DNA of 64,000 nt from an uncultured Poribacteria bacterium (lineage in GTDB: Bacteria; Poribacteria; WGA-4E; WGA-3G), in NCBI GenBank assembly GCA_951828515.1, contig OX639992.1, positions 4,304,509 through 4,368,508 of the forward strand. Direction: 5' to 3'. The notes below the pieces were generated by a model that was not told the origin of the DNA, did not search any database, and saw only the letters and a list, made by a program, of their open reading frames with translations. Shown here piece after piece: positions 4,051-53,630 of the stretch. A program made the position numbers and the translations under genes. Position 1 is the first letter of the stretch. Every line of letters starts with the position of its first letter.

Positions 4051-4174
4051 AAGTTTCATCGAACGGCTATCGGTCTCTATCGGCAGTCGTCGGAAGGAAA
4101 CACCCAAGTAAAAACACGCTACTTTATCAGAATACCTCTTTACTAACGACTGAAAACCGACAACCATTAAAAAA

Positions 4175-5281
4175 ATGAGAGAAATATACCAAAAAATTCC
4201 AGAACTAATTGAGTCCGCTCAAGTCGGGGCATACTGCACTGTTGTCGAGACGAAAGGCTCAACCCCACAAAAGCCCGGTTCAAAACTCTTGATTCTCCCA
4301 GATTTGCGGAATATTGGAACTCTCGGTGGTGGTTGTGTTGAAGCCGAAGCGCGGCGACAGGCGATCGGGTTGATGCAAGACGGTGTGCCGAGGCTGCTTG
4401 AGTTTCAATTGGATAGCGATTACGGATGGGACGATGGACTCATCTGCGGCGGGAATATGAAAATCTTTATCGATTTGCCAAGAACCCCCGCCGAAGCCGA
4501 GATGTTTGAGAGACTTCAAACGTTGAACGCCGAGAAAATTCCGCTCGTCTGTGCAACGGTTGTGGCGAGTGAAAAGCAGGGCATTGATGTTGGCATGAAG
4601 ATGATCTTTGCGAACACCGGTGAACATATCGGCACGTTAGGGGATCCGGCTTTGGAAGCGGCTGTGGAAGAGGAGACTGCAAAGGTACTTGCGCGGAACA
4701 GTGCTGGCTTGTTTCGGGAGAACGAAACGGCTTCTGTCTTCTTGGAACCGCTACAACCGAGACCGACGTTGCTTATCGCAGGGGCAGGACATGTCGGTCA
4801 AGCACTCTGTCATCTTGGGAACTGGTTAGATTTCGACGTTGTGATTGTTGACGACCGCGCCGACTTTGCTTCCGCTGAGCGGTTGCCGGAGGCACACAAG
4901 ATTATCATCGGCGATATCGAAACGGAACTCCGAAACTATCCGATTACCCCACTAACGTATGTTGTGATTGTCACCCGTGGACATCAACACGATGAATCGG
5001 CACTCCATAGTGTTGTTGAATCGAATGCCGGTTACATCGGCTTAATCGGCAGCCGCCGCAAGATTAAACTGATATTTGATGATTTGCTGGAGGCGGGGAT
5101 TTCCAAGGATAAACTTCAGCGAGTTTACGCACCCATCGGACTCGATATTAACTCGAAAACAGTCCCAGAGATCGCAGTCAGCATCGCATCGCAACTCGTC
5201 CAGATACGCAACGCTGCTGACACTCTTGACACCTTTAACGCACAGCCTGCACGAATGCCTACCGTTAAAATAGCGGGGTGA
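4175..5281 (+). CDS. xdhC: XdhC/CoxI family molybdoenzyme maturation factor
   Basis: GSTPQKPG, GTLGGGCVEA, GLICGG, GAGHVG, VTRGHQHD, YIGLIGSRRK, APIGLDI...PEIAVSI. Confidence 0.9.
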   Translation: MREIYQKIPELIESAQVGAYCTVVETKGSTPQKPGSKLLILPDLRNIGTLGGGCVEAEARRQAIGLMQDGVPRLLEFQLDSDYGWDDGLICGGNMKIFIDLPRTPAEAEMFERLQTLNAEKIPLVCATVVASEKQGIDVGMKMIFANTGEHIGTLGDPALEAAVEEETAKVLARNSAGLFRENETASVFLEPLQPRPTLLIAGAGHVGQALCHLGNWLDFDVVIVDDRADFASAERLPEAHKIIIGDIETELRNYPITPLTYVVIVTRGHQHDESALHSVVESNAGYIGLIGSRRKIKLIFDDLLEAGISKDKLQRVYAPIGLDINSKTVPEIAVSIASQLVQIRNAADTLDTFNAQPARMPTVKIAG

Positions 5282-5287
5282 TAATAG

Positions 5288-5638
5288 ATGAACGATATCC
5301 AGATAACAGAGGACAAAACCTATACGCTTTCAGAAGTTATAGACTTTGTAAAACAGACGTTAGACCGTGTTAGTGAAAAGTCTACCCACGACCCACTGCG
5401 ATATTCGTCCACCGATGTTTATTGGTTACTACACGACATGCTTCGGTATGTGAACAGGAATATCCCAGGTGAATTTATCCTGTTGCAGACCCAGAAAGGG
5501 ATTTACCGAGTGACGTATGCGGCTGAAGATTCTGTGAAACAGAAGTCGAGTCGAAAACTCAATGCGGAGGTAAACCGCACCGCCCGTTATCTTGAAGAAT
5601 TGACCGGCAGGAAGCCATCATGGGGCGAAAAAGAGTAG
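5288..5638 (+). CDS. Hypothetical protein (116 aa)
   Basis: ORF directly downstream of xdhC, same strand. Confidence 0.6.
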   Translation: MNDIQITEDKTYTLSEVIDFVKQTLDRVSEKSTHDPLRYSSTDVYWLLHDMLRYVNRNIPGEFILLQTQKGIYRVTYAAEDSVKQKSSRKLNAEVNRTARYLEELTGRKPSWGEKE

Positions 5639-5893
5639 CCATTCGTTTCCCCGCACGCCTTAAAAGTAGCAGGCACACTCCGTGTGCCGTATAACCAACT
5701 TACTTAGAAGTAGCAGGCACCCTCCGTGGGTTCTCCGTAACCAACTCACCAGAACCCGGTAGATGCGGTTTCCCAACCGCACCGGATTTTCCTCATCATC
5801 TTTTCATAAGTTATTGTTCTATTGCTTTCCCTTCTTAGCCCCATAGGGGTGACATCTGAGAAGCATAAATTCCCAAATATAACTTGATTTCCC

Positions 5894-5922
5894 TTGACGT
5901 TCGCTATCAAATATTCTATTAT
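5894..5922 (+). promoter_or_regulatory. Sigma70-type promoter TTGACG-17-TATTAT
   Basis: Consensus match upstream of the 5985 ORF. Confidence 0.55.
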
Positions 5923-5984
5923 TTTAACAAGCGTTTACTATAATGAGTCTATTCATGGTCCCAGCGGGACAAAAGGGGCAGTTC

Positions 5985-9752: not shown

Positions 9753-9826
9753 AATTGCGTCCTCCTTGCGTTGTATTGTAGGGGCAGTCCTTGTGGCTGC
9801 CCTTGTGCCTTACAAACTATATCGCT

Positions 9827-10630: not shown

Positions 10631-10663
10631 GTCGTAAACCCTCTTTTCTTTCGCATTTTACTA

Positions 10664-10800
10664 TATAGTAAAACCCATAATTAAGTTTACACTCTGTAAT
10701 GCGGCGAGGTTAGGGGGAAACGCCCTATCAAAAACACCTCGCCAGCAATGTGGGGTTTTGTGTTTTCGAGAGTGTGCAAGTATTTTCGGGCTTTACTATA
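10664..10800. mobile_element. TATAGT-ended MITE-like element carrying an internal REP
   Basis: Ends TATAGTAAAACCC / GGGCTTTACTATA; ends related to elements at 21336, 46767, 50506. Confidence 0.6.
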
Positions 10801-11764: not shown

Positions 11765-11992
11765 TTTTTGAGTCAAAGATGTTTTATTTTTATGTGTCTT
11801 TCAGTATGCCATGTCTAACCCTTTTTTATCAAGGAATCTTTTTTAAATTATTGCGATTCGCGACACCTTGTGCTATCATCTAATACCATTTCTACACGCT
11901 AACCGCAGGCGACTTCACCGCAACGCGCAAACTGCTAATCCGGAAATAATACCTAATTCGCTAAATGTATCGCGTGTTCCCTCGAAAACCTT

Positions 11993-12021
11993 TTGCGTAT
12001 CAAGACGGTTCGTGTTATTAT
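11993..12021 (+). promoter_or_regulatory. Promoter TTGCGT-17-(TGn)TATTAT, probably giving a leaderless mRNA
   Basis: -10 ends 7 nt before ATG 12029; no RBS. Confidence 0.5.
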
Positions 12022-12028
12022 ATAAAAT

Positions 12029-12526
12029 ATGACAACGCATTCTGGAAAAAATAGGCATCGTGTTTACATTGACGCAATGATACCGAGTTATCTCGTCGCG
12101 CCTTTAAGCCGTGCCCCCAAAATAGCAGAATGGCAAAGAATCACGCGTGAATTTTGGCAGGACTCCCGTTTTGAATTTATCTTGTCAGATTATGTTATTG
12201 ATGAAATATCAATCGGTGATAGAAATCAAGCCTCGAATAGATTACGCGCAGTTGCGAAAGTTCCTGTCATAGTTGTTCGGCATTTTGATTTAGCGTTCGC
12301 GGACCGGTTGATACATCAGAAGGCACTTCCGCTGGAAGCTCTTACTGATGCTGTTCACATAGCGGTTACGGCAAGACGTTCTATACCCTATTTAGCAACG
12401 TGGAATTTCGCGCACCTTGCAAATGCAAATACGCGCTCAAAAATTGAACGGATTTGTCAAGATGAGGGTTATTCGCCTCCCCGTATTGATACCCCAGAGG
12501 CGATATTGGAGGCAATCAATGTGTGA
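12029..12526 (+). CDS. PIN-domain protein (toxin-like)
   Basis: VYID..IPSYL, S.YVIDEI, DAVHIA, TWNFAHLAN. Confidence 0.85.
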   Translation: MTTHSGKNRHRVYIDAMIPSYLVAPLSRAPKIAEWQRITREFWQDSRFEFILSDYVIDEISIGDRNQASNRLRAVAKVPVIVVRHFDLAFADRLIHQKALPLEALTDAVHIAVTARRSIPYLATWNFAHLANANTRSKIERICQDEGYSPPRIDTPEAILEAINV

Positions 12527-16085: not shown

Positions 16086-16381
16086 AATTATGTCAAAATA
16101 TAGCCGTTCTCCGCTATGAATTCGTTATGGATATTATACCGCATTCAGCGCGAAAAAGCAAGGTATTTTGGGGATAAATAGGGCTATTGAGTTCTCCGTT
16201 TTTTCCCGTTTTTTGATCCCAGTCCCGGCACCCCCAGTCCCGGCACCTCCTGGTCCGGTAGGGTTTTTGCTTGGGTGTTTCTTCACTGTTTTCAACTGCG
16301 CCGGAGTTTACCCACGACCCTTTCTCAACCAAGAAGCGTCTATAATCCTGAAAATCCTTGAATCCTGAAAATCCTGATTCA

Positions 16382-16961: not shown

Positions 16962-18910
16962 AAAACGATGAAGGTCAAGGAGAGGGTGCTGAAATCCCGG
17001 AAACCGATGAATCCGATGCCGTAGAGATTACCGATACCAACTTAGCCTCGGCAATCCGTAGCACGCTTGGCTTAGGGACGGATGCGGAGATAACCGCATC
17101 GGATATGCTGAATCTCACGAGTCTGCAAGCCAAGAAAGCAGGGATCAGCGACCTGAGCGGCTTGGCGCATGCGACGCACCTCACGACGCTCAATCTCGCT
17201 TCAAACTCAATTAGCAATCTCAGTCCGCTGAAAGACTTGCTGAGTCTCAATCACCTCGACCTCTACTCGAATCAAGTAACGGATCTCGGTTCGCTCTCAG
17301 GCCTCGAAAGTCTGACCTCCTTAGAGGTCGGTAAAAATGTGATTACCGACATAGAGGCTCTTGGAGACTTGACATCTCTGACGTCCCTGTATCTTGATGA
17401 TAATAAGTTGACAGACTTCAGCGATCTCTCGAGTTTGACGGGTCTGAGCGTGTTGAGTCTGAGTAAGACGGGTATCAGCGATCTCAGCGTGCTTGAGAAG
17501 CTAACGAACCTAACGCAGTTATATCTGACGGGCAACGAGATCAGTAGCATCACTGCGTTGTCAAAGTTGCCGAAGTTGGGTTGGTTATTTCTTGCGCAGA
17601 ATCAGATAAGTGATGTCAGTCCACTTGTGGGTGTGGAGAGTTTGATGTCGTTGCGTCTGTTGGGGAATCCAGTATCGGATGCGTCACTGCTTTATCCATT
17701 GACGCAAGGGGGCCTGATAGATGTCGATATTGAGATACCGCCCCCGTCGGATACAGACCCTCCGAGTGTAGTGATTACGGTTCCCACGACTGCTCAGAAT
17801 GGCGCGTTTGATGTAACGATAATGTTCAGTGAAGCCGTCTCCGGCTTTGAGCAATCGGATCTGTCGATCTCCGGGGCAGCCACTGCGACTGTCACGGCGT
17901 GGTCCTCTACAGACGACACCGTCTTTACTGCGACGATTACGCCGACGAGGGATAGCGAGATGATGCTGAGTGTCGCCGCGGGTGTTGCCACCGATGCCGC
18001 AAACAATAACAATACGGCTTCGGAGACACTGACGGTCACCGTAGATATGACTTCACCGGGTGTCAGTCTTTCTGTGCCAGCAGATGCTCAGAATGGTGCG
18101 TTTGATGTAACCATCACGTTCACGCAGGTAGTTTCCAACTTTTTGCAAGCAGACCTGACGCTTTCCGGGACAGCGGCTGCGACTGTCACGGCGTGGTCCT
18201 CTACAGACGATAGGGTCTATACCGCCACAGTTACGCCAACGACGAGTGGGAATGTGGTGCTGAGTATCGCCGCGGGTGTCGCCACGGATGCCGCAGGCAA
18301 CCAAAACACGGCTTCCGACTCCCAGACTGTGACTGTGACACTGGAATGGATGCCGGATGCCAACCTCAAAGCTGCCGTTCGAGGCGCGCTTGGGCTTCAA
18401 GCAGAGGAGACACTCACCACGGCGAAAATGACAGAACTGCGGACACTGGATGCCCCATTGCGCGAGATAGAGAAGCTCACGGGGTTGGAACATGCCACGA
18501 GCCTGACGAATTTAGATCTGGGTGACAATTCGATAAGCGACATCAAGCCTCTTGAAGATTTGACGAGCCTGACGAATTTAGAACTGGATGACAATTCGAT
18601 AAGCGACATCAAGCCTCTTGAAGATTTGACGAGCCTGAAGGAGTTAGATCTGAGAGACAATTCGATAAGCGACATCAAGCCTCTTGAAGATTTGACGAGC
18701 CTGATGAAGTTAAATCTGGCAACGAATTCGATCAGCGATGTGAGTGATCTTAAAGGCTTGACGAACCTGACGGATTTATGGCTTGGAGGGAATTCGATAA
18801 GCGATGTGAGTGATCTTAAAGACTTGACGAACCTGACATCGTTATATCTGACGGCGAATTCGATCAGCGATGTGAGTGATCTTAAAGACTTGACGAGCCT
18901 GACAATGCTA

Positions 18911-21429: not shown

Positions 21430-21520
21430 ATAAAATGTTTCGGTAATTCCATTTGGAAAAACGATTGTAGGGGATTTTTGCTTGGATGTTTCTTGGTCTT
21501 GTGCCTGCCCACACATTACC

Positions 21521-36330: not shown

Positions 36331-36336
36331 TCGTTG

Positions 36337-38855: not shown

Positions 38856-39096
38856 TTTTTTGTCCGTCGTTTCAGCAGGATAGGATACTTGTAAATTAGC
38901 ACAAATCGAAATCAATTTCAAGGGGTAGGCAGATAAATTGCTCCTGTAGGAGGGAACTCCGATTCCCGACTCTTGCCGACCGCTGACTGCCGACCGCTAT
39001 TCTGCTGACTGCCGATTGCTGTCTTGCTGATTGCTGTCTTGCTGACGGCTATTCCTGTAGGAGCGAGTTCCACTCGCGATTCTTACCGGATAACTC

Positions 39097-40687: not shown

Positions 40688-40804
40688 GAATATGAGGTGT
40701 GCACCAACTTACGACACCGGGGGGATAGTTTGAGATTCGAATAAAGTATATTCGATTGTAGGGGCAGTCCTTGTGGCTGCCCTCTTAAAATTCTCGGCGT
40801 GTTG

Positions 40805-42814
<2,010 letters not shown>

Positions 42815-42884
42815 TTATCCGGTTTTAGAAGGGCTTCTAAAAATTTTAAACAACCTGGACCGGTCGCAAATACATCTATTTGCG

Positions 42885-44315
42885 TCATTGGGTATGTACT
42901 GATAAATCGCTTGCGATCGTTAATCGTCTCTGACGTGTAAAGGTACGTGGACGCGTGAACCCTTCGCCTGTCGGTCCCGCGATAGTCATCGCGAGGTAGC
43001 CTTCGCCTTCTAATCCGCAGGAAGAGTAAGAAGGTGCGTTAATGACTGTAACGCTACAGTCCATTGCCTTTGTGAACTGCGTAATGCGTTTGGTGTTGTT
43101 TGTGTGAAGCACTGCGGTGTGCCCACGTCCACCTTCTGCTCTGACCGCGCCTGCCAATGCCTCATCGAAGTCGCGACAACGAACGACGGGCAGAATCGGC
43201 ATCAGATATTCGTTAATGACGAACCCATGATCCGCTGGTACCTCAACAACGATTGCAACTGTCTGTGGGGGTGCTGTGATACCGGCGGCGTTTAAAATGG
43301 TCAACGCATCTTTGCCGATGTACTCCTTGTTTGATTCCTCTTTTTCTGTGACAACCGCCTCTAATGCCTGAAGCTGGCTCACATTGAGTAGATGCCCGCC
43401 ATTCCGTGTTAACTCCTGAACTGTTTCGTTTGCTACGGAATCGATAACGAAAAGTGCTTTCTCACCGATACAGAGCAGATTGTTGTCAAAACTTGTGCCG
43501 GCAATGACATGTTCCGCTGCCTGCTGAACATCCGCTGTTTCGTCAATGATTGCAGGCGGATTGCCGGGTCCAGCGGCGACTGTCTTTTTACCGCTTGAGA
43601 GTGCAGTCCGGACGACGGACGCGCCACCTGTCGCAACGAGCATAGCGATGTCAGGATGCTCCATGATCTCCTTTGCTGTTCGCAGACTGGCGTTCGCAAC
43701 CGAAGTAAGTAAGTTAGCAGGACCCCCTGCCTTGACGATTGCTTCGTTGATGACGTGCATCGTTTCTTCGGTGCAGTCGCGCGCATTCGGGTGCGGGCTG
43801 AACACAACAGAATTCCCTGCTGATAGCATTATAATCGCATGGTTAATTACCGTTGAGGTCGGATTCGTGGTAGGGGTGATCGAGTTGATAACGCCGAAAG
43901 GAACATATTCGATGAGAAGTGTTCCAGAATCGCCCGATACCGCCTCAGACAGAAGGTCATCCACACCCGGTGAGAGTGTTACCGCCCCCTCATTCTTCAT
44001 CACCTTATGTGCCGCATCCCCCATATTTGTGTCTTGTACTGCCAAGTCCGCAAGACGTTTCGCGTTCGCGAGTGATACCTCTTTGATCGCTTTGATGATC
44101 TCGCGCCTTTTGGCAAACCCAAGTTTGACAAGTGCTTTCTGTGCCGTTTGTGCGGCTGCGATAGCCTCTGCCGCTGTCCCAAAAACGCCTGCTCGCGAGG
44201 AGGAACTCACCCCCACGGACGTAACTGGCTGTGTTGCGACTGGTCTGTCTTGTTGGAGTGTTCTTAAGACTTGGGAGACAATTTCTTCAATCTGTTTTTC
44301 GTCAATTTGTGCCAT
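42885..44315 (-). CDS. EutE/PduP-type acylating aldehyde dehydrogenase with N-terminal BMC encapsulation peptide
   Basis: PTTNPT, ATGG, AGPGNPP, FDNNLLC.GEK, TGEG; N-term IDEKQIEEIVSQVLRTL. Confidence 0.9.
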   Translation of the reverse strand: MAQIDEKQIEEIVSQVLRTLQQDRPVATQPVTSVGVSSSSRAGVFGTAAEAIAAAQTAQKALVKLGFAKRREIIKAIKEVSLANAKRLADLAVQDTNMGDAAHKVMKNEGAVTLSPGVDDLLSEAVSGDSGTLLIEYVPFGVINSITPTTNPTSTVINHAIIMLSAGNSVVFSPHPNARDCTEETMHVINEAIVKAGGPANLLTSVANASLRTAKEIMEHPDIAMLVATGGASVVRTALSSGKKTVAAGPGNPPAIIDETADVQQAAEHVIAGTSFDNNLLCIGEKALFVIDSVANETVQELTRNGGHLLNVSQLQALEAVVTEKEESNKEYIGKDALTILNAAGITAPPQTVAIVVEVPADHGFVINEYLMPILPVVRCRDFDEALAGAVRAEGGRGHTAVLHTNNTKRITQFTKAMDCSVTVINAPSYSSCGLEGEGYLAMTIAGPTGEGFTRPRTFTRQRRLTIASDLSVHTQ

Positions 44316-44483
44316 TCAGCCCTCCAATACCTCGTTGCGCAGGGCGCGCTACGGGAACACATGCTGAACCACTAATGGATCCAGACGATAGATATAGACC
44401 CTGTGGCAGGGCAACGTGTTCTCTACTAAAGCGGTGTAGGGTTGGGGTACGAAAGCCATCCCTCACCCTACAAAATTTCCGAT

Positions 44484-44783
44484 TTATTTGCTGCTACTCT
44501 TGGCTGCAGAATTCCCGCCAAGAATGGCTTCCACATCTGAATGTGGGCGAGGGATGACATGCACCGACACTAATTCGCCGACTGCTTTCGCCGCTTCTGC
44601 GCCAGCATCTGTCGCAGCTTGCACCGCACCGACATCTCCACGGACCAAAACAGTGACAAAACCGCCACCTACCTGTTCTTTTCCGACCAATTTGACGTTT
44701 GCAGCTTTCACCATGGTGTCAGCAGCTTCGACCGCACCAACGAGTCCACGTGTTTCAACCATTCCTAATGCTTCATTGCTCAT
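44484..44783 (-). CDS. BMC-H microcompartment shell protein (EutM/PduA-like)
   Basis: [33 protein letters not shown]. Confidence 0.95.
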
Positions 44784-45005
44784 GTAGTTAGCTCCTTATC
44801 TGTGAAAATAGAATACGAGGCACCGTCCGGCGTACCACCGATGTCTGTTGTTAGGTTGGCCATAGCCTCGGTACGCACAGCGTCCCCTTAATCAAATATG
44901 CTCGTTAATAATGATACTACAAAATTCGCATTTCTGCAAGTCAAATTTTTAATATCATCAGGATAGGTGTGGAGGTTTAATCCAATGTACTTTTCGATTT
45001 TGTCT

Positions 45006-45034
45006 TGACTTTTAATCGGAATTCTGCTAAAATA
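45006..45034 (+). promoter_or_regulatory. Sigma70 promoter TTGACT-17-(TGn)TAAAAT
   Basis: Consensus upstream of citrate synthase-like gene; divergent TTGCAG-17-TATCAT on minus strand near 44911-44939. Confidence 0.6.
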
Positions 45035-45201
45035 TATTAAAGTATTGACGCAAGTCGATTAAAAACTTTTTTAAGCGGAATCTGAAGCACCTCATTGTCT
45101 TGTCGCGTGAAGGGGGGTTGCGTGGATTCAGACGAATTAAATTTCGGAGAAACTTGTAAAACAAAAATTTCTATTGGAACGTCAACGAAGGAGAACTCAT
45201 T

Positions 45202-46752
45202 TTGAACAAAGTTTTGGGGGTGAAGCAGGCAGCCGCGGCCCGAAAAATCCTGTCTGGTGTGCCAGAAGCCTCAACGTATGCCCCAGTAACGGATTCCTTA
45301 AACAGAGCGGCAGAGTTGGGTGAAGATAAGATCACAGCCGTGCTTACCAGTTTCAGCTCGATGCCACAATCGACAACCGTTTTCGCGAATCCGGCGTTGC
45401 ACAAAGTCGCAGTTGATTGTGCTGGCACCCAAATAACATTGAACATTCGCAGCTTTGCTATTCGGGGTATTGTATCTGAAAGTGAGATCGTTGCAGGACA
45501 GATCAGTCCCGCTGGTGTCATCTTCGCTGGACTCTTCGGTAGAAAACCTGAAACGGATGCAACTGGACTTGACGAAGAGGCACTGCTGGCAGAATTAATA
45601 GATAAGAAATTTTATAACTTTGTTACGACTCGCAGAGATAGCCTCACCGGTAAACATCGGCTCGTCAATCAGGTCGCTGAATTTGTTAAAGCCTTCCCAG
45701 AAGCAGGTCCCGAAGCTGCCATTCAACATTTCTCAACACTCCGTAAACTCAGTCATCCGAATCAGAAAGGGATTAACAGCACAAGACACCCCGGCGCACT
45801 CCTGCTTGAACTGATCGGGACGCACATGGAGAATGTCGCAGTCGGGACGGTTTCTGTGTACATGCGCCATCAGCTCCGAGAGAACAATGCACTGCATCCG
45901 CAAGTCCTCGCAATGCGCGCATCCGATCTCATTACCGAACATCAGAAAAATGGAAAAACCGCTTTCCAAACCTCCTATAGTCTCCTTTTGGGGCGTGAAG
46001 CAAGCACCGTCGAAGCGAATATCTTAGAACGAATGGGGATCATACAGGCGCACCACGGTTCCGCAGGTTCCAACGTTGTCGCACGCTATCTTGCCACTTT
46101 GCATACCGGCGCAGTCTCTGACTTTTTTGTCGCATCACAAATGACGTTAGATGGCGACCGACACTTCGGCGCAATTCACGACATGACGGCTTTCATTAAT
46201 CAAATTGAACCGCTTGATACCGAAACCCGTGAAGACGCAATTCGTCAACGGATGCTGTCTGCGCTGCCGACCTTTGGACACCCAGAAATCGCTGCCGCTG
46301 GACGATCTGATGAAATCCAGCAAGACCCCAGACCTGCCATCTATTTCAATCCTTTCTTAGAAGCTGTTGACAATGGTGACATTCAACTCAACGATCGACA
46401 GAAAAAACGGTTGGGTATTACGCAGCGCATTTACCAACTCGCTTTCATCGAAGGCTTTGTCCGTCCCGGACGTGAGGACGAACCGCCCCTCCGTTTAACA
46501 CCGAATACCGATTTCGGTGGATGGGCAGTCCAAGAAGGGTTGGACATCTATGAGAGTGATAGAACCCTATTGACCTATATCTTCCGTGGTTTTGGTTGGA
46601 TGATGGATGCCCGCGAACAACTCCAACTCAGGATTATCCGGCCCGTTATTCCACCCCACCCAGATGTCATTCCCGGACCGACTGACGATATGACCATTGC
46701 AAACGAAGTGGTCGCATTACACAATCGGATGGCAAGCACGAGCACCTTTTAG
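45202..46752 (+). CDS. Divergent citrate synthase-family protein
   Basis: HHG..S, HFGA, FGHP, DPR, PNTDF, RGFGW, IIRP motifs; adjacent to icd; TTG start with AAGGAG RBS. Confidence 0.75.
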   Translation: MNKVLGVKQAAAARKILSGVPEASTYAPVTDSLNRAAELGEDKITAVLTSFSSMPQSTTVFANPALHKVAVDCAGTQITLNIRSFAIRGIVSESEIVAGQISPAGVIFAGLFGRKPETDATGLDEEALLAELIDKKFYNFVTTRRDSLTGKHRLVNQVAEFVKAFPEAGPEAAIQHFSTLRKLSHPNQKGINSTRHPGALLLELIGTHMENVAVGTVSVYMRHQLRENNALHPQVLAMRASDLITEHQKNGKTAFQTSYSLLLGREASTVEANILERMGIIQAHHGSAGSNVVARYLATLHTGAVSDFFVASQMTLDGDRHFGAIHDMTAFINQIEPLDTETREDAIRQRMLSALPTFGHPEIAAAGRSDEIQQDPRPAIYFNPFLEAVDNGDIQLNDRQKKRLGITQRIYQLAFIEGFVRPGREDEPPLRLTPNTDFGGWAVQEGLDIYESDRTLLTYIFRGFGWMMDAREQLQLRIIRPVIPPHPDVIPGPTDDMTIANEVVALHNRMASTSTF

Positions 46753-46766
46753 GAATCATCGGTTTT

Positions 46767-46908
46767 TATGGTGGATTATCAAAATATGTAAACGTTTCAG
46801 GGAACACTGGACCTCTCTGCCACCGCTGGAGAGGGTGTTTTTGCTTGGGTGTTTCCCCTAGTATCCTCGCCCTCTTTTGGTGTATAAGTAATTCTATAAT
46901 TCACCATA
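46767..46908. mobile_element. Degenerate TATAGT-family MITE with internal REP and nested motif
   Basis: TATGGTGGATT ... AATTCACCATA ends. Confidence 0.5.
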
Positions 46909-46994
46909 GTTAAAGACAGAGGTTGTTAAATTAACGTCTCTTTTAACTGATAACTGAAGACTGAAAACCGAAAACTATTGAGAGAGGAACACCC

Positions 46995-48239
46995 GTGATT
47001 GAATTTGAGCAATTAACTGCACCAACAGAAGGGGAAAGAATCGGGATCGACAATGGACAGCTCGTCGTGCCGAATAAGCCGATTATCCCTGTTATTGAAG
47101 GCGACGGCATCGGACGAGACATCATGAAGGTTACACGCCGGGTTGTTGATGCGGCTGTTCAGACAGCGTCCAACGGTGAAAACCAGATCGTTTGGTTTGA
47201 TGTCTACGCTGGCGAAAACGCCATGGCGAAATACAACGAATGGCTCCCACAGGATACCTTTGACGCAATTGAATACTTCCGCGTTGCCCTGAAGGGACCC
47301 CTCACAACACCTGTCGGTGGTGGATTCCGAAGTCTAAACGTGACGCTGCGTCAGGTCCTTGAACTCTACGCATGTGTCCGTCCCGTCCGCTACTTCCAAG
47401 GTGTCCCCGCCCCTGTAACGCATCCCGAAAAGATGGATGTCGTTATCTTCCGTGAAAACACTGAAGATGTCTACGCTGGCATTGAATGGGAGCAAGGCAC
47501 GCCAGAGGTGAAAAAGGTTATCGAATTGCTCCGCACCGAAATGGGAGTAAACATCCGCGAGGATTCCGGTATCGGTGTGAAACCGATCAGCATTTTCGGC
47601 ACAAAACGCTTGGCACGGATGGCGATCCAGTACGCAATTGACCACGGCAGACGCAGTGTCACCTTTGTTCATAAAGGCAATATCATGAAGTTTACCGAAG
47701 GGGCGTTCTGTGCATGGGGATATGAACTCGCCAAAGAAGAATTCGCTGATCAGACGATTACAGAGGATGAACTCTACAGCGATTACGGGGGTGAGTGTCC
47801 AGAAGGAAAAATAATTGTCAATGACCGAATTGCTGACAGCATGTTGCAGCAGATTCTAACGCGAACCGATGAATACGATGTGATTGCCACCCCGAATTTG
47901 AACGGGGATTATCTCTCGGATGCTGCAGCGGCACAAGTCGGTGGTATCGGTATGGCACCCGGTGGTAACCTCAGCGATGAAGTCGCGCTTTTTGAGGCGA
48001 CGCACGGCACTGCACCGAAGTATACCGATCAGGATGTCGTCAATCCGGGTTCACTGATCCTCTCTGCGGTGATGATGCTGGAGCACATGGGCTGGCAAGA
48101 AGCCGCCGACCTGATTATTTCGGGACTTGAGAAGACCCTCCTCCAGAAACGGGTGACCTACGATCTGGAACGTCTCATGGAAGGCGCGACGAAGGTCCGA
48201 ACTTCTGAGTTCGGTGCATCGATTGTCGAGAACTTTTAG
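46995..48239 (+). CDS. icd: Isocitrate dehydrogenase (E. coli-type)
   Basis: [49 protein letters not shown]. Confidence 0.97.
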
Positions 48240-48278
48240 CGAAAACCTCTTCCACCACACATAGCAAAGGAACGACAG

Positions 48279-48416
48279 ATGTCCTTAAAAACGAAGATTA
48301 TTCTGGGAACAGGTGTGTTGGCGGCTATCGGCATCGGTATCGGTCTTGAATTACATCGTCTTCACAGGCGCATTCTGGAAGAATTAGTGGCAATTCGCCA
48401 GCAAGGCGAGCGGTAA
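48279..48416 (+). CDS. Small single-TM protein (45 aa), not in ORF track
   Basis: MSLKTKIILGTGVLAAIGIGIGLELHRLHRRILEELVAIRQQGER*; RBS AAGGA. Confidence 0.55.
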   Translation: MSLKTKIILGTGVLAAIGIGIGLELHRLHRRILEELVAIRQQGER

Positions 48417-48630
48417 TTGATACCGTTTCCAACTGCCCCTGTCCTGCACAATTATCCTTCCTAAACTCTTAGGGCATTCCGTTTTCCCTTCTTGAGTCCC
48501 AGCGGGTTTATTTGCTTGGGTGTTTCCTTCAATATGTTTATAGAAACCGTTCAGAAGAGCCATCAAGCCCTGTAAGGGCGGCATTTGGCAGCTCTAAGGA
48601 CTTTCTGTGCCAGAGAACGAGGTATACATC

Positions 48631-49896
48631 ATGATTACCGAACTCAGCGCGCAAAATTTCAAATCTTGGGAAGATACGGGTAAGTTGCAGATAGCACCCT
48701 TAACCGGATTTTTCGGCGCGAACAGTTCCGGCAAAACCAGCATTCTGCAAACGCTGCTCATGCTAAAGCAGACCGTGGAACGTCCATGGAATTGGGAGGG
48801 AATTATTGATTTCGGTGACGATAATTCACTGGTTAACTTGGGCAGTTTTGACGACCTCATTCACGGACACAGACGTGACCATCCACTCCGAATCTCACTA
48901 TCGTGGAAATTATCAGAAGAACTAAGGATAGGAGATACGGACGAGGTGGATACCCTCTCCTTTGATCTCAGCATCAATAACAATGAAAATTCAGTCTCCC
49001 AGCCGGTTTTCAATTATAGGGTAGACGAACAACGCTTTGGGATAAGTTGGGATAGTCAGGGGATCTGTTGGGTTTCTGCCCCCAGTGTGCCAAATCTCGA
49101 TGCCACCGTGTTTCGGTGTTATGGGATTCACAATTTATACTCTGATATACTGAAACTTTTTTCACCGCTCCAAACTTGTTTTGAAAATCTGTTTCGCAGC
49201 ATCCGTTATCTCGGTCCCCTCCGTGAATATCCCCGCCGGCATTACGCATGGCAGGGTAAGCATTCGCCAGGTGTAGGGCAGCACGGGGAAGATATGGTCA
49301 CCGCCCTCTTTTCCGGACGAATTCAACTCCGTTCTCTTGACGAGCAGATCCCTAAATGGCTACAGCGGTTGGATTTAATCGACTCCTATCGCCTCAATCC
49401 TATCTCCGAAACAGAAAAGGATTACGAATTTCTCGTCAGAAAATACAAGGGCGGACCCGAAGTCCGACTCACAGATGTCGGTTTTGGGGTTTCGCAGGTG
49501 CTGCCAGTATTAGTTCTGTGTTATTACGTGCCTGAGGGAAGTATCCTCATTCTTGAACAACCTGAAGCACATCTCCATCCGAAAGTCCAGTCGGAATTGG
49601 CGGATCTTCTTATTGAGGTCGTAAAAAATCGGCGACTCCAAATTATCCTTGAGAGCCACAGTGAGCATCTGCTGATACGGTTAATGCGACGGATCGCTGA
49701 GGAACAGATTTCAGCAGACGACACCGCCTTCTATTTTTGTGAAATGAACGAAGGGGTATCCGAAATTGAGAAGCTCAATGTGGATGATTACGGAAACATC
49801 ACGAATTGGCCACAAAACTTCTTCGGGGATGAGATGGGTGACTTGGCAGCAAAAACGAAAGCGGAGATGAAACGTCGGAAAGCCGGCAAATTATGA
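48631..49896 (+). CDS. ABC/AAA_21 ATPase with DUF3696-like C-terminus
   Basis: QNFKS, GANSSGKT, DVGFGVSQVLP, LEQPEAHLHP, ESHSEH, NWPQNFF. Confidence 0.88.
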   Translation: MITELSAQNFKSWEDTGKLQIAPLTGFFGANSSGKTSILQTLLMLKQTVERPWNWEGIIDFGDDNSLVNLGSFDDLIHGHRRDHPLRISLSWKLSEELRIGDTDEVDTLSFDLSINNNENSVSQPVFNYRVDEQRFGISWDSQGICWVSAPSVPNLDATVFRCYGIHNLYSDILKLFSPLQTCFENLFRSIRYLGPLREYPRRHYAWQGKHSPGVGQHGEDMVTALFSGRIQLRSLDEQIPKWLQRLDLIDSYRLNPISETEKDYEFLVRKYKGGPEVRLTDVGFGVSQVLPVLVLCYYVPEGSILILEQPEAHLHPKVQSELADLLIEVVKNRRLQIILESHSEHLLIRLMRRIAEEQISADDTAFYFCEMNEGVSEIEKLNVDDYGNITNWPQNFFGDEMGDLAAKTKAEMKRRKAGKL

Positions 49897-50396
49897 AAGT
49901 TATTGTAGATACAAATGTTCCGTTAGTTGCCAATGGGAGAGCAGACCAAGCATCTGAAGATTGCGTGGAAACCTGTATTGACGAACTAATGAAGATTACC
50001 GAAGGTAACGTAAAATTAGTGTTGGATGACCAGCGACGAATTATCGAAGAATACCGAAATAAATTGAATCCGGGAGGTTTTCCTGGTGTTGGAGACGCTT
50101 TCCTTAAATGGGCGGAGATAAATTGGGCAAACCTGCAACAATGTGATTTGGTTTCCATTACACCTATTGATGATTTAGAAACTGATTTTCAGGAGTTTCC
50201 AGCATACCCGGCGTTAGCGGATTTTGATCCGGATGATAGAAAATTTATCGCTGTTGCACTCGCACACTCCGAGAAACCTCCTATCTTGCAAGCGGTGGAT
50301 AGTGGGTGGTGGAACTACCGAGAGGCATTCCATCGAAACGGTGTAACGATTGATTTCATCTGTGAAAATGACATTCGTTTGATGCTAAACCTGTAA
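49893..50396 (+). CDS. PIN-like domain protein
   Basis: VIVDTNV, DPDDRKFIAVA, AVDSGW; ATGA overlap with ATPase. Confidence 0.75.
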   Translation: MKVIVDTNVPLVANGRADQASEDCVETCIDELMKITEGNVKLVLDDQRRIIEEYRNKLNPGGFPGVGDAFLKWAEINWANLQQCDLVSITPIDDLETDFQEFPAYPALADFDPDDRKFIAVALAHSEKPPILQAVDSGWWNYREAFHRNGVTIDFICENDIRLMLNL

Positions 50397-50505
50397 CTTC
50401 TATTTTCCCACCTCAAAAATAAGCCTACCCAATCTTAATCTGATGTTCTGTATTGCCACGACCCAACCTACATACACCGAAAGAAATACCCTTCCGTAAG
50501 ATTTT

Positions 50506-50599
50506 TATAGTAAAGCCCGAAAATATCTGCACACCCCCGGTAGGTGCGGTTTCTAACCGCACCGAGTTTGGTGTAAAAGTAATTGCAGGATCCACTATA
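50506..50599. mobile_element. TATAGT-ended MITE-like element with internal REP
   Basis: Near-identical to 21336-21429. Confidence 0.7.
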
Positions 50600-51177
50600 A
50601 TATGACAATTTTTGTGTGTTTGGACGCAATTTTTGCGTGTTTTCATGCGGTTTCTGCATAGTTGCGAGAGCTTAGGATTGAAAACGGGCTCCGTCTCTTT
50701 GACAGTGACGAAAAAAATGGACGCGTATGCCCGTTCTCTAAACCCAGTGTACGTCTGTATTTGAAGCGCATTACCGTAAAGACCTCCTTCGATCTTGGCG
50801 AAAATATGTCCGTTATGGATAGGATTGGCACGAAATTTGCTACTTTACCATTACCAACTGTTTATATAATCATATCTGGTCATTAGCAATGTCAGATTCT
50901 GTATATAAAATAGTTGTATTCGGTATGCTTTATTGAGAATTCAGCCTATATTTTGTTTAGCAAAGCTGTCGCCGGATTCTTAGGTTCGACTCCCATTTTT
51001 CCTTTCATTAACGAACGGGATGTTCTATCTCTCTGATTTTTCTGTGGAGGGATATGTTTAAACCTTTTCGTTCCTACGGAGTTTTATCGGTGCCAGCGAG
51101 TTGTATTGTAAACGTTTAGCACTTTATAGGCTTTCGGTTCGCACAAGCTTATATTTCCCTTGGTAAGGAGATAGTGA

Positions 51178-51531
51178 ATGGATAGAGGTGTCTTTGACGG
51201 GTTCACTGTGAAAATATTTTATGGCGAGGACGACTATTATCTCGCGCATTTTGTGGAGCTTCCGAATGTTTGGGCTTTCGGAACGACGCCATCTAAGGCT
51301 ATGATTGAATTGGAAGCGACTTGGGAATTAATAAAACAGCATAATCGGATGGACAGAGAACCCATTCCGAAGGCACCTTCACAAGAAGCGTATGAAGGAT
51401 TTTTCAATGTTCCGGTCGATGCGCAACTTTATCACACCCTGACTGTTGCTGCGACGGAAGCAGGTGTGAACCTGTATACCATCGTGGCACGTAAGCTCGC
51501 CGCAGCAACAAAAAATGATGAGGGGTTATAG
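51178..51531 (+). CDS. HicB-family antitoxin (no adjacent HicA seen)
   Basis: YLAHFVELPNV.AFG.T...A..EL, PIP, C-terminal RHH-like segment. Confidence 0.75.
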   Translation: MDRGVFDGFTVKIFYGEDDYYLAHFVELPNVWAFGTTPSKAMIELEATWELIKQHNRMDREPIPKAPSQEAYEGFFNVPVDAQLYHTLTVAATEAGVNLYTIVARKLAAATKNDEGL

Positions 51532-51651
51532 ATAGAGTAAAACCCGTTTGCTGGCGAGGTTTTAAAGCCTCGCCACGCACCCGTACTGCACACCATCACA
51601 AAACCCTCAAGTCCGTATTCCTACCTTTCAGAAAATCCATACAAAAAGCAC

Positions 51652-51680
51652 TTGACACCAACCACGCTTTAAGGTATCAT
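51652..51680 (+). promoter_or_regulatory. Sigma70 promoter TTGACA-17-TATCAT
   Basis: Consensus match upstream of NIPSNAP gene. Confidence 0.6.
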
Positions 51681-51801
51681 CCTCATTGCCTAAATCGCCG
51701 GTTTCAGCCCTACTGGGAGATATGTGTAGAGAGTGGTATTATCTACATTTAACGAGATAGTTCCAATAAATCAGAACGAACGAATAACGCGGGAGGAGAG
51801 T

Positions 51802-52422
51802 ATGATCCACGAAATAAGAACCTACAATTTGAAACTCGGCCAACTTAACGAATACTGGGAACGTTTCGGCGAGAAGTTACCCGGACGCCAGAAGCTATCG
51901 AAACTCGGTGGACACTGGTACACCGAAGTAGGACCCTTGAACCAGATGGTCGCTATTTGGCCCTATGAGAGTCTTGAACAGCGGGCGGAGATCCGGCGCA
52001 CTGCGGAAGCGGGACCGAATCCGGTATGGCCCCCCGATACAAGCGATCTCATTGTGTCGATGGTATCCGAGATTTTTCTGCCAGCCCCCTTTATGGAACC
52101 CTTGGGTGAAAGAGACCTCGGACCGATATATGAGATGCGTTTGTACACCTATCCAGCGGAAGGTATGCCGCAGGTTTTAGAAGCGTGGGGTGCCGCTATC
52201 CCTGAACGCGTGAAGTATTCATCGTTGGCAGGCTGTTGGTACTCGGAATACGGTGGGGTCAACAATTTCATCCATATATGGGCGTATAGGAGTTTTGAAG
52301 AACGCCAACGCATCCGAGTAGAGACGCGAGAGAAAGGCGTCTGGCCCCCCAAAGGTTCAGTCAGACCCATCACGCAGGAGAGCAAGCTTCTGCTACCTGC
52401 CCCTTTTTCACCGATGCAGTAG
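51802..52422 (+). CDS. NIPSNAP family protein (two domains)
   Basis: IHEIRTY, W.TEVG.LN, IYEMRLY, HIWAY.S.EER, PAPFSPMQ. Confidence 0.9.
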   Translation: MIHEIRTYNLKLGQLNEYWERFGEKLPGRQKLSKLGGHWYTEVGPLNQMVAIWPYESLEQRAEIRRTAEAGPNPVWPPDTSDLIVSMVSEIFLPAPFMEPLGERDLGPIYEMRLYTYPAEGMPQVLEAWGAAIPERVKYSSLAGCWYSEYGGVNNFIHIWAYRSFEERQRIRVETREKGVWPPKGSVRPITQESKLLLPAPFSPMQ

Positions 52423-52439
52423 TCTAATAACCCCTCCGC

Positions 52440-53630
52440 ACCGCTGGCGAGGTTTCCCACCTCGCCTTCTTTCTTTTCTCTCATTTCTTAAACACTGCTC
52501 TGTACACTATCGTACTACGATGCTACAATCGGTTTTCCAAATATGGTCACTGACTGCTGATTGCTGACCGCTGACCGCTGTTCGCGGTAGGTGCGGTTTT
52601 CAACCGTACCATAAGTGTCAATCTAAGAAAAAATAACCGTCACGCCCCAGAAAAGTAGGCGCTGTTTGAAACTGCGCCGGATTTTACACAGAACCCCTGA
52701 AAACTTCAAAGACCTCTTGAATCCCGTAGGGTTTATTTGCTTGGGTATTTCTTCAGTATCTCTGTAGAAAAGTGCTACCTTACAGACCTAAGCCCCGTAG
52801 GGGTTTTTTGATAGGGTGTTTCTTCAGCATCTATAGAAATCTGTGGCAAAATGATACCGAAAACCACTAAATTGACACCTATGGTGCGGTTTCCTAACCG
52901 CACCGGGCATAACCAAAAACAGTGGGACCTTTTAAGAGGAATCATCAATCAGAATTGGTATAACTACTGTTCTTCTGTAGGAGCGAGTGTTTTTGCTTGG
53001 GTGTTTCCGCATGCTCGCGAAGCAAGGTAGTAGGCACACTCCGTGTGCCGTTCACTAAGAAAGAACGTGCGATAATGCACGTCGCATTTGGGCGAGTACG
53101 CCGCAAAATCGCACGACTACAAACAGAATTTTGATTTCCCCAGCGGGGCGATATGTGTTAATTGTCTGAATCACGGATTGACACAGATTACGCGGATTAC
53201 GCGGATAAGAGAGCGTTCATTATTGGCATAGTGGATTTTAGTTTTCCTAACAGGGCTTGGCTAATGCGGTGCACACCGTGCTATAAACATACCGCCCTTA
53301 CAGGTTTTAGGTTTACAAAAATCAAATATACTTGGAAATAAGAAACACCTATTATATTTAGCCCAGCAGGGGTTTTGCTTGAGTGTTTCTTCAATATGTC
53401 TATAATTATGTGATGCTTCATCCCTCTTTAGCCCCAACGGGGCGACATGTTTATAGTCGCATGATGCTCCACCACTCCTCAGCCCCAGCGGGGCGACATG
53501 TGTGTAGAAAGCGACAATAACCACCTATCTTTAGCCCCAGCGGGGCGGCATGTGTGTAGGAAAGTGGTAAATCCCAAAACCCAAACCCCGTAGGGGCTGT
53601 GGGTTTCCCAACCTCGCTCCTCGCTACCAA
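52440..53630. repeat. Dense cluster of nested REP/MITE-like repeats
   Basis: Several palindrome families, CCATAAGTGTCAA/TTGACACCTATGG element 52609-52884, repeated AGCCCCAGCGGGGCG. Confidence 0.85.

Follow-up and report, generated by a model that had tools for sequence, protein, structure and literature searches.

How does one short, non-palindromic motif come to lie inside REP families that share no sequence homology with each other? The question was raised by a 64,000-nucleotide stretch of a poribacterial genome (the window), in which an original prediction, made from the letters alone, had listed ten intergenic copies. All ten exist. A search with GTTTTTGNNNGGGTGTTTC, allowing up to two mismatches, found nine copies in the window compared with 0.07 expected, a count that 0 of 100 shuffles reached, and the remaining copy, at 52731, has diverged to a TTTATTTGCTTGGGTATTTC form and was detected by a 25-nt weight matrix. 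The copies and the MITE that hosts one of them are listed below; copy coordinates are those of the 25-nt weight-matrix matches.

4094..4118, minus strand: element copy inside a hairpin module with flanking heptamer repeats, common to the orthologous site of G110 and G050
10714..10738, minus strand: ATA-variant element copy occupying the loop of a REP, GCTGGCGAGG...CCTCGCC, within a 135-nt MITE
~10661-10795: the 135-nt MITE hosting the 10714 copy, with TTTA flanks; 46 copies in the genome, missing at the orthologous G110 site
16260..16284, plus strand: element copy after CCGGTAGG, in a member of the REP family beside the RAYT gene at genome position 2484729
21471..21495, plus strand: element copy after TGTAGGGG, within REP TGTAGGGGCAGGTCTTGTGCCTGCCC, whose 5' arm has its CA replaced
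46834..46858, plus strand: element copy in a GCTGGAGAGG...CCTCGCC REP, itself part of a larger repeat module
48505..48529, plus strand: element copy, TTTATTTG form, after CCCAGCGGG; orthologous REP empty in G128 and G109
52730..52754, plus strand: element copy, TTTATTTG form, after CCCGTAGGG; orthologous G110 REP empty, ATG there being 24 nt here
52801..52825, plus strand: element copy, ATA variant, after CCCCGTAGGGG; orthologous G110 REP empty, CG there being 23 nt here
52986..53010, plus strand: element copy within the REP loop of GTAGGAGCGAG...CTCGCGA; orthologous G110 site also filled
53368..53392, plus strand: element copy after CCCAGCAGGG; crossed with 0 differences by independent contigs of public runs X3 and X6

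Because the copy at 4094..4118 is filled in G110 and G050 as well, it is an old insertion. The larger repeat module around the 46834 copy was absent from the orthologous spacer in 29 of 29 other loci of the genus examined. Public contigs over six window copies showed no 20-24-nt indel, but short contigs cannot show absence. The empty forms named in the prediction were present at every position given for them:

9777..9802, plus strand: empty REP TGTAGGGGCAGTCCTTGTGGCTGCCC, kin to the host of the 21471 copy; second copy at 40757-40782
39057..39079, plus strand: empty REP GTAGGAGCGAGTTCCACTCGCGA, host family of the 52986 copy
52443..52466, plus strand: empty REP GCTGGCGAGGTTTCCCACCTCGCC, empty also in orthologous G110, G063 and G068
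52655..52680, plus strand: empty REP GTAGGCGCTGTTTGAAACTGCGCCGG, host family of the 16260 copy
53429..53454, plus strand: empty REP GCCCCAACGGGGCGACATGTTTATAG, of the family flanking the RAYT gene at genome position 2864911; further member at 63663-63689

Genome-wide copies of the element

The unit reads GTTTTTG(CTT/ATA/CTG)GGG(T/C)GTTTC, a non-palindromic core of about 20 bases followed by a short variable tail of 1-5 nt, mostly CCC(TA) or TTC(A). Scanning the whole genome with the 25-nt weight matrix (cut-off, at least 14 bits) gave 352 non-overlapping copies, compared with 3 matches in the reversed-genome control. The conserved block covers about 21-25 nt, and information content drops to about zero within 3-4 nt beyond either end. 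The 352 copies occupy 161 different flank contexts, 117 of which are unique. Among 295 left halves, 226 were complete, 38 were broken by the start of a new element and 31 were point-mutated (by eye); none was a copy truncated at its 5' or 3' end. Inverted repeats were absent from the element, its longest self-complementary run being 2 nt, and a hairpin looked for in the unit was not found. The G/T-rich strand lies on the leading strand in 223 of 352 copies, with the origin assumed at dnaA; the host REPs have a stronger bias of their own, from which that of the copies may come.

Junctions and target

Insertion occurs 3' of R-G-(G/T). In 41 host families, position -3 was a purine in 37, -2 was G in 32 and -1 was G or T in 39, while +1 was a pyrimidine in 32 and +2 was G in 17. 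The 5' junction is exact, whereas the 3' junction is looser, with 0-5 of the next host bases lost (usually about 2 nt, most often CG), so that a filled site exceeds an empty one by 20-23 nt. The predicted replacement of a few host bases was seen directly in orthologous alignments, in which CG, ATG and ACGGC were replaced. No target-site duplication was seen at the junctions, which show loss of target bases instead. The CTT, ATA and CTG variants were all found at one and the same junction of a single host family.

The same target recurs in the middle of the element (TTGGG|YG|TTTC, a GGG|YG site), which therefore inserts into itself and gives nested left-left-left/right-right-right stacks. Stacks of three are present.

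Filled and empty sites between species and paralogues

All comparisons of filled and empty sites were made between species or between paralogues, and both states were found. REPs or hairpin repeats filled in one related species and empty in another occurred at window positions 48508, 52731 and 52804 and at genome positions 4604562, 4648510 and 4603046. The clean orthologous differences did not go beyond the element's 20-27 nt, the REPs being otherwise conserved; at the 48505 copy, for example, ACGGC of the empty G128 and G109 REP was replaced, with a net gain of 22 nt. The two members of one tandem pair of 53-nt REP units, identical in their flanks, differed solely by a clean 20-nt insert.

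For 39 G000 copies in a 480-kb stretch syntenic with G110, 14 sites were filled in both genomes; of the other 25, G110 was cleanly empty at 2 and gave no clear picture at 13, the flanks lacked collinearity at 8, and an orthologous flank was missing at 2. Resolution by hand added 2 of the 8 not-collinear sites and 1 of the 13 unclear sites as empty in G110. Reciprocally, 12 of 23 G110 copies had a filled counterpart in G000 and 1 a cleanly empty one, the remaining 10 being unclear (2), not collinear (4) or without orthologous flank (4). Copies in other species lay in contexts unseen in G000 in 65 of 141 cases. The REP orthologous to the empty one at window 52443 carries a CTT-type insertion in G050 and one of ATA type in G109, in opposite orientation in both, and was thus hit independently in two species by different variants.

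These data show that a complete unit was inserted many separate times into the intergenic DNA of one poribacterial genus. We infer by parsimony, on unrooted comparisons, that the species differences reflect insertion and not precise deletion, and that insertion took place in several lineages once they had separated. With a probability of about 0.8, the motif is a tiny insertion element, non-autonomous and similar in behaviour to the small dispersed repeats (SDRs) of cyanobacteria. The original prediction had proposed a dedicated process that writes into REPs a fixed sequence some 20-25 nt long. Its core, dedicated insertion of a fixed sequence, is upheld by the clean junctions at orthologous and paralogous sites, the all-or-none copies, the variants at one junction and the independent hits in two species; writing by reverse transcriptase (RT), REP specificity, fixed orientation and novelty were not supported, as described below.

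Host repeats

The host repeats are genuine REPs, as had been assumed. They have GTAG heads and adjoin RAYT genes; the genome contains five Y1_Tnp (RAYT) genes, each with its own flanking REP family, and four of these five families host the element. An element-free homologue exists for 207 of the 352 copies and 76 of the 161 contexts, and some lie elsewhere in the genome and are closer than those in the window (e.g. TGTAGGGGCAGGTCTTGTGCCTGCCC for the host of the 21474 copy). Heptamer-flanked modules also occur among the contexts. The T-run of the element comes after a hairpin in some hosts.

REP specificity did not extend beyond the window. Single-copy contexts lay in DNA with an empty homologue elsewhere in 37 of 117 cases (32%), compared with 181 of 700 random intergenic sites (26%), or 215 of 700 (31%) when these were taken after GG, and pairing of the flanks across the element was no commoner than at random intergenic sites. 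Since single-copy contexts are no more often in repeats than random intergenic sites, REP targeting is weaker than the window suggests. REPs and hairpin repeats look favoured because they offer GTAGG, GGGG and GAGG runs, because they take up much of the intergenic space, and because filled REPs and MITEs were later copied as composites. The fixed orientation to the REP head likewise broke down outside the window: of the copies in the GTAGGAGGGAACTCCGATTCCC family, 17 share the GTAG strand and 18 lie opposite, and the REP of window 52443 is filled in reverse orientation in both G050 and G109.

Distribution in Poribacteria

The element was found in 42 of 44 sampled genomes of the same genus, with 3-218 copies each (218 in G063, 160 in G050 and 150 in G068 as copy-rich examples). 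The motif occurred in 4 of 32 sister-genus genomes, with 1-3 copies, and in 4 of 44 genomes from all other genera, with one match each. Exact copies were present in Poribacteria MAGs of many different names, at least 115 stretches in all, both in short-read-style contigs and in chromosome-level records, and the named genomes with the motif were almost all Candidatus Poribacteria MAGs. The element is restricted to one sponge-associated poribacterial genus, with few matches elsewhere.

Alternative explanations

Synthesis by RT or from an RNA template, primed at a nick in the REP and the foremost mechanism in the original prediction, is improbable as the way in which the sequence is written. The exact 5' and ragged 3' junctions fit a fixed template start with imprecise joining at the far end, and RVT_1 genes were present in 28 of 46 sampled genomes of the genus. 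However, this genome (one contig, 95% complete) had no RVT_1 match, nor had 17 others (18 of 46 in all), including the copy-rich G063, G050 and G068; RVT_1 count did not follow copy number (Spearman rho -0.06); and truncated copies were not seen. An RT route has reportedly been proposed for the cyanobacterial SDRs.

It is less probable still that the motif is immobile, having entered a few repeats once and spread by amplification of composite REPs and MITEs and by gene conversion. Spread of this kind does occur: the 46 near-identical copies of one 135-nt MITE include the one at window 10661-10795, an insertion by comparison with G110; all five copies in the TGTAGGGG host have the same junction and variant; and at window 46837 the whole module, not the motif alone, is lineage-specific. 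As the only process, it is largely refuted by the orthologous filled/empty pairs and by the REP that received two variants in two species. The 117 unique contexts, insertions in unrelated REP families, differences confined to the element and self-nesting at one internal site argue against it as well.

There is very little chance that the motif is a selected protein- or RNA-binding site, or a terminator-like U-tract module, kept by function and not by insertion. Two GKTGTTT half-sites, 14 nt apart, form an internal direct repeat; 295 of the 352 copies lie outside long ORFs; between tandem genes there is a mild sense bias (120 vs 90); and the hairpin and T-run of some hosts would suit a terminator. 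Selection for function leaves the nested stacks, the all-or-none copies and the insertion junctions unexplained, and orientation relative to genes is nearly random. Copies shared by G000 and G110 diverge like the genome (332 of 350 positions identical, 94.9%, vs about 95%), the element alone (both strands of two copies) folded no better than shuffles (z -1.56 to +0.68), and a search of the window against Rfam at gathering scores gave no match. Inserted copies may have taken on a secondary function.

A library adapter, primer or assembly artefact, against which the prediction had cautioned, is refuted, since the motif occurs in MAGs of many named assemblies, in nearly all genomes of the genus, in contigs from independent runs and at conserved orthologous positions, and nothing was found in its favour.

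Candidate mechanisms

Our guess for the mechanism is a host-encoded activity that works in trans on single-stranded DNA. No enzyme, intermediate or master copy came to light, and multicopy IS200-like transposases were absent from this genome. According to the available parts of PMC3333891 and PMC3116915, TnpA-REP of E. coli cleaves single-stranded DNA at C|T near the REP and carries out strand transfer; by analogy, strand transfer of this type could in principle swap short segments. A RAYT/HUH nuclease that exchanges a short stretch lying between two cuts, a reaction within the reach of TnpA-REP in vitro, is a doubtful candidate. RAYT count was weakly related to copy number (Spearman rho 0.33, p = 0.07, n = 31 related genomes), G054 has 5 Y1_Tnp matches and no element, and G063, with the most copies, has only 2 weak Y1_Tnp matches, one of which contains a stop. 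Host replication or repair that uses existing copies as its source would be about as doubtful, and an RNA/RT route would be a poor prospect; some other enzyme is the likeliest of the four candidates, at less than even odds.

Comparison with known systems

The SDRs, SDR1-SDR8, are the nearest known parallel and were reportedly described by Elhai et al. 2008 in Nostoc punctiforme and relatives as units of 21-27 nt in many unrelated contexts, within minitransposons and beside heptamer tandem repeats, self-nested, confined to one coherent clade and encoding no protein; SDR4-6 are said to share a predicted secondary structure with compensatory changes. The poribacterial element resembles them in its size of 20-odd nt, its many copies and contexts, its lack of an encoded protein, its presence in a 135-nt MITE and in heptamer-flanked modules, its nesting in its own copies (38 of 295 left halves), and its confinement to a clade with signs of recent mobility at orthologous filled and empty sites. 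The likeness drawn to SDR1-8 is one of described features, and the hosts are Poribacteria instead of Nostocaceae. Unlike SDR4-6, the element is not predicted to form a structure by itself; it also differs in that its target rule (R-G-K, with about 2 nt lost) and its filled and empty orthologous sites have been worked out, and in that RT is disfavoured. The available part of PMC5861425 places SDRs only in Nostocaceae. The SDRs as reported are a thing of the same kind, and the statement that no description was known is therefore not supported. The element is among the smallest mobile DNA elements seen and, as far as the literature found shows, the first of its kind outside cyanobacteria.

The REP/REPIN-RAYT system is shared to the extent that the hosts are true REPs with GTAG heads beside RAYT genes. 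The element itself is non-palindromic, has no GTAG head, lies in either orientation, inserts into itself and occurs beyond REPs too, and its copy number follows RAYT count weakly. The BIMEs of E. coli contain non-palindromic linker motifs (PMC3333891 and PMC3116915, available parts); as described there, these lie between two REPs, whereas the element lies inside one.

As far as the available part of PMC3333891 goes, IS200/IS605 elements (IS608, ISDra2) are similar in making no target duplication and inserting 3' of a short specific sequence. A leading-strand orientation bias, and with it strand-specific insertion into the lagging-strand template, may be shared too, but the bias of our element assumes the dnaA origin and may come from the host REPs. 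By the same source, they differ in having subterminal hairpins, a transposase gene and a length of >700 nt compared with about 24 nt, and in that insertion of our element loses about 2 target bases. Subterminal hairpins for a Y1 transposase, as expected of an IS200/IS605-derived (PATE-like) element, were not found in the unit.

MITEs, as treated in the available part of PMC3184786, are likewise non-autonomous, intergenic and recognised by filled and empty sites, and REPs can serve as IS insertion targets according to the parts available of PMC3184786 and PMC1525189. The element differs from MITEs in having neither terminal inverted repeats nor a target-site duplication, and the MITEs of PMC3184786 (about 104-435 bp in the part available) are five to ten times longer.

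Copies and Shape of the Element

The original prediction named ten copies in the window of a non-palindromic unit of ~20-25 nt that begins with GTTTTTG and has CTT and ATA variants, and all ten were present. A pattern search recovered nine of them, against 0.07 expected, and the tenth, at 52731, was a diverged form that was visible in the sequence and was recovered with a weight matrix. In the whole genome that holds the window (G000; a single contig of 5.85 Mb, 47.8% G+C), the core 19-mer occurred 65 times exactly and 225 times at ≤2 mismatches, and a 25-nt matrix identified 352 non-overlapping copies vs 3 in the reversed genome. Information content was ~2 bits over GTTTTTGCTTGGGYGTTTC and dropped to ~0 within 3–4 nt of each side. 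Greedy clustering with 14 nt from each side sorted the 352 copies into 161 flank contexts, 117 of them unique. The element is a short, sharp-edged block in many different surroundings.

When 295 left halves were inspected, 226 were complete, 38 led directly into the start of another element, and the remaining 31 were judged by eye to be complete with point changes. No truncated copies were seen among the 295; the element is all-or-none. The 38 interrupted copies fitted exactly if a 24-nt unit, GTTTTTGATAGGGCGTTTCCYCAA, took the place of YG in the GGG|YG|TTTC within the element itself. By manual parsing, this self-insertion rule reproduced letter for letter a stack at genome position 11957, in which three left parts are followed by three right parts (left-left-left/right-right-right). 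A folding test found no structure of the element's own, and a search of the window against Rfam gave 0 matches at gathering scores.

Filled and Empty Sites within the Genome

An element-free homologue was found elsewhere in G000 for 207 of the 352 copies, representing 76 of the 161 contexts. Alignment of filled and empty members for 51 contexts showed the same pattern each time: the left flank extended to R-G-(G/T), the GTTTTTG start followed, and the filled form was 20–23 nt longer. Among 41 host families, the base at –3 was a purine in 37, that at –2 was G in 32, and that at –1 was G or T in 39; on the 3' side, +1 was a pyrimidine in 32 and +2 was G in 17. Two neighboring REP units of 53 nt, identical in their flanks, differed solely by a 20-nt insert.

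The copy at 10717 had come within a 135-nt MITE (46 copies) that was missing from G110, a related poribacterial genome, and part of the element copy number is therefore composite spread. This MITE lies at window ~10661–10795 and 45 other genome places and carries a filled GCTGGCGAGG REP. Because there was no copy at the orthologous G110 site and the MITE has TTTA flanks, an IS630-type transposase may move it. An IS630-like insertion sequence, of which G110 has at least 10 copies at 86–95% identity, was also present in the window:

18908–20150: IS630-like insertion sequence with a split transposase
19551–20144, minus strand: HTH_32 part of the transposase
18919–19554, minus strand: DDE_3 part of the transposase

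Filled and Empty Sites between Species

Comparison with other sampled poribacterial genomes revealed filled and empty forms at orthologous sites. The REP at window 48508 was filled in G000, and its ortholog between the same genes was empty in G128 and G109. The neighboring REPs at 52731 and 52804 were filled by two different variants in G000, and in G110 both were empty (ATG in place of 24 nt and CG in place of 23 nt), with several hundred bases collinear. The spacer downstream of this pair was not conserved in G128, G050, G068, G063 or G109, so the polarity there is read from G110 alone. At 52443, just 3' of a NIPSNAP-family gene, the REP was empty in G000, G110, G063 and G068 and was filled by a CTT-type element in G050 and an ATA-type element in G109, both lying on the opposite strand to the GCTGG head. 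Since the ancestral REP could not have held both variants, at least these copies were gained independently.

A 480-kb stretch of G110 was syntenic with G000 4.305–4.817 Mb at ~95% identity. Of 39 G000 copies in this stretch, 14 were filled in both genomes and 2 were cleanly empty in G110, with 13 unclear to the script, 8 in non-collinear flanks and 2 without an orthologous flank. The 23 G110 copies comprised 12 common to both genomes, 1 cleanly empty in G000 and 10 unresolved. Two of the eight non-collinear cases were the 52731 and 52804 copies, which were checked by hand and were empty in G110. Manual inspection of one unclear case (G000:C1:4603000-4603110) showed three nested copies (+70 nt) in a REP that was empty in G110, with flanks 98–99% identical; nested stacks may form quickly or in a single event. 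The G110 copy at 344057 proved to be an entire additional REP unit, already filled, instead of an element insertion and was left out of the count.

In other species, 65 of 141 element copies were in contexts not found in G000, including those species' own REP families. The copy at 4097 was common to G110 and G050 and is an old one. Copies common to G000 and G110 were 94.9% identical, which is about the genome-wide value, and there is thus no sign of selection on the element sequence. The spacers at window 11843–12030 and 38900–39110 were too diverged between G000 and G110 for filled/empty comparison. Public contigs from four runs covering window 38000–55000, which are short and break at repeats, showed no 20–24-nt indel at the element sites among the best-supported differences listed.

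The core of the original prediction, that a dedicated process writes this sequence into host repeats, is supported by the filled and empty sites both within the genome and between species. We estimate a probability of roughly 80% that the element is a small insertion element.

Several genes were noted in the course of these comparisons. The ORF at window 48607–49896, which adjoins the filled REP at 48505, has AAA_15/AAA_21 (AbiEii-like) and DUF3696 domains and is possibly a defense-type ATPase. Within a conserved 593-aa ORF at G000:C1:4802845, G110 has an in-frame partial REP, part of which is replaced by the element in G000; the replacement adds 3 nt net and leaves the ORF in frame. A 4243-aa ORF occupies window 21888–34619. 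The syntenic G110 stretch had no match of ≥300 nt (E≤1e-20) between window 15957 and 34680, and this gene may therefore be lineage-specific.

Host Repeats and Orientation

Six Y1_Tnp matches were found in G000, five of them over the Pfam cut-off, and each of these five RAYT genes had arrays of a repeat of its own on its flanks:

Family 1: CCCCGTAGGGGTG.TATGTCTATAG, hosts the element
Family 2: CCGGTAGGTGCGGTTTGCAACCGCACCGG, hosts the element
Family 3: GCTGGCGAGGTTTCCTAACCTCGCC, hosts the element
Family 4: GGTAGGAGGGAACTCCGCTTCCCGAC, hosts the element
Family 5: AGTAGTAGGCACGCTCCGCGTGCCG, outside the four listed as element hosts

The view that the host repeats are genuine REPs was thus borne out, with four of the five families hosting the element. 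Further hosts were a ~120-nt family, hairpin modules with heptamer tandem repeats on either side, and the 135-nt MITE. The ~120-nt family, which starts with GTAGCCTGCAACAACGGCGCAGG and reads GTAGCCTGCAACAACGGCGCAGGCGGATATACGG...CTGACCGAACCGCAAGGTAAAATTAAAAA, ends on one side in a GTAG-headed hairpin and hosts the element more often than any other family, with >100 copies in G000 and none in the window; it may be REPIN-like, a MITE or an RNA gene. The heptamer repeats (CTGACTG, GTTTTCA, CGGTTAT and their complements), which supply some of the genome's most frequent 12-mers, flank small hairpin modules such as those at window 4051–4174, 38950–39050 and 46940–46990. These modules were gained and lost between species, resulting in intergenic spacer turnover.

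The element was intergenic: crude ORFs covered 84% of the genome, yet 295 of 352 copies fell outside them, and most of the 45 copies inside were ≤300 nt from an ORF end. The expected specificity for REPs did not hold: unique contexts were in repeated DNA no more often (37/117) than random intergenic positions (181/700 and 215/700). Nor did a general location in hairpin loops, since flank complementarity of ≥6 nt was seen in 29% of contexts vs 21–24% at random intergenic positions. The proposed fixed orientation relative to the REP head did not hold either; the copies of one REP family were split 17 to 18 between the GTAG strand and the opposite strand, and reversed copies occurred in the GCTGG family. 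It is the local R-G-K run that sets orientation. Relative to genes orientation was near random, and a reading as an intrinsic terminator (hairpin plus T-run) was rejected on that ground.

Distribution of the Element

When one genome per prokaryotic species was scanned for the exact motif, at least 115 stretches matched, nearly all in Candidatus Poribacteria records from many differently named assemblies. The non-Poribacteria among the matches listed were one Pyrinomonadales MAG, which by its context looks like a chance match within other sequence, and two 'uncultured bacterium' records. At ≤1 mismatch, 42 of 44 sampled genomes of the genus to which G000 belongs had 3–218 copies, 4 of 32 sister-genus genomes had 1–3 copies each, and all other sampled genera of the phylum, pooled, had one match apiece in 4 of 44 genomes; the reversed pattern gave zero matches in every sampled genome of the phylum. 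Two members of the genus, G054 and G105, had matches at control level only; they do have REPs, RAYTs or both. The copy at 53368–53392 showed 0 differences in independent public contigs covering the site. Given this spread over many assemblies and independent contigs, the motif is neither an adapter nor an assembly artifact, a concern raised with the original prediction.

In the whole IMG/VR set, the exact 19-mer was present in 1 contig only, indicating that phages do not generally carry the element. In that contig (L240:13317-13335) the copy follows GTAGGGG, and the contig may be a prophage-like part of a poribacterial genome.

Candidate Machinery

Writing by a reverse transcriptase, the mechanism first suggested, is disfavored. 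No RVT_1 match was found in G000 or in 17 other genomes of the genus (18 of 46 sampled), including three of the most copy-rich, and RVT_1 count did not correlate with element copy number.

RAYTs were present in all 46 sampled genomes. Among 31 related genomes, their number correlated only weakly with that of element copies (rho 0.33, p 0.07); G054 had five Y1_Tnp matches and no element, and G063 had 218 copies and two poor matches. E. coli TnpA-REP cuts single-stranded DNA at C|T near the REP, at variable distance, and performs strand transfer (PMC3333891), so it is conceivable that an enzyme of this type swaps segments. Manual reading of the A/C-rich strand showed C|T at many element 3' junctions, which by analogy would be a lead towards a RAYT-like segment swap.

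The GC skew of G000 indicated neither origin nor terminus, and the origin was placed at dnaA (2.349 Mb). With this origin, 223 of 352 element copies, and 77 of 117 unique contexts, had their G/T-rich strand leading. The host REPs were more strongly biased than the element: the GTAG strand of five REP families was leading in 75–85% of exact copies.

It is a tentative proposal, and rather a doubtful one, that a ~24-nt unit with no structure, inverted repeats or coding capacity is moved by an undescribed mechanism independent of both a reverse transcriptase and its own transposase. One option would be that a short piece of single-stranded DNA is swapped sequence-specifically at R-G-K|Y-G sites. 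Such a swap would replace a dinucleotide, and its repeated action could yield nested stacks. Dozens of near-complete genomes from the one genus, with 0 to >200 copies, are available, and profiling of genes against copy number could identify the machinery.

Likeness to Small Dispersed Repeats

Mobile DNA is usually taken to need an enzyme of its own or else structured ends of ≥100 nt. To our knowledge, the small dispersed repeats (SDRs) of Nostocaceae are the only reported exception at ~24 nt, and we know of no explanation since 2008. The Nostoc SDRs of Elhai et al. (2008) are reportedly 21–27 nt long, self-nested, located within heptamer repeats and minitransposons, and clade-restricted. The element matches these features point for point in size, self-nesting, heptamer/minitransposon setting and clade restriction, and by this analogy its behavior is that of an SDR. 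Its host taxon, Poribacteria, sets it apart from SDR1–8. Nor does it belong with the REPs, MITEs or IS200-type elements. The original statement that no description of such a process was known is not supported, as the SDRs in Nostoc are reportedly the same kind of repeat. A cyanobacterial origin, our first guess from the SDR likeness, was rejected; HIP1 was not enriched (156 vs ~89 expected), and the named matches were Poribacteria.

A literature search, with most subscription journals outside its reach, found no description of REPs, MITEs or such elements in Poribacteria, or of such an element outside cyanobacteria. SDRs are regarded as clade-specific to Nostocaceae in one paper (PMC5861425), and other papers citing the Nostoc work touch on them briefly. 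The element belongs to a known but rare kind of repeat and is a second, independent case of SDR-like mobility, in a distant phylum; the two may have machinery in common. It brings a defined target rule, exact junctions, self-targeting, lineage-specific gains and many near-complete genomes at 0 to >200 copies, which opens the question of what moves a 24-mer to tests by comparative genomics and simple oligonucleotide biochemistry. Its insertions break or remodel REP hairpins and drive rapid intergenic turnover in sponge symbionts, and repeats this short can break up short-read assemblies.
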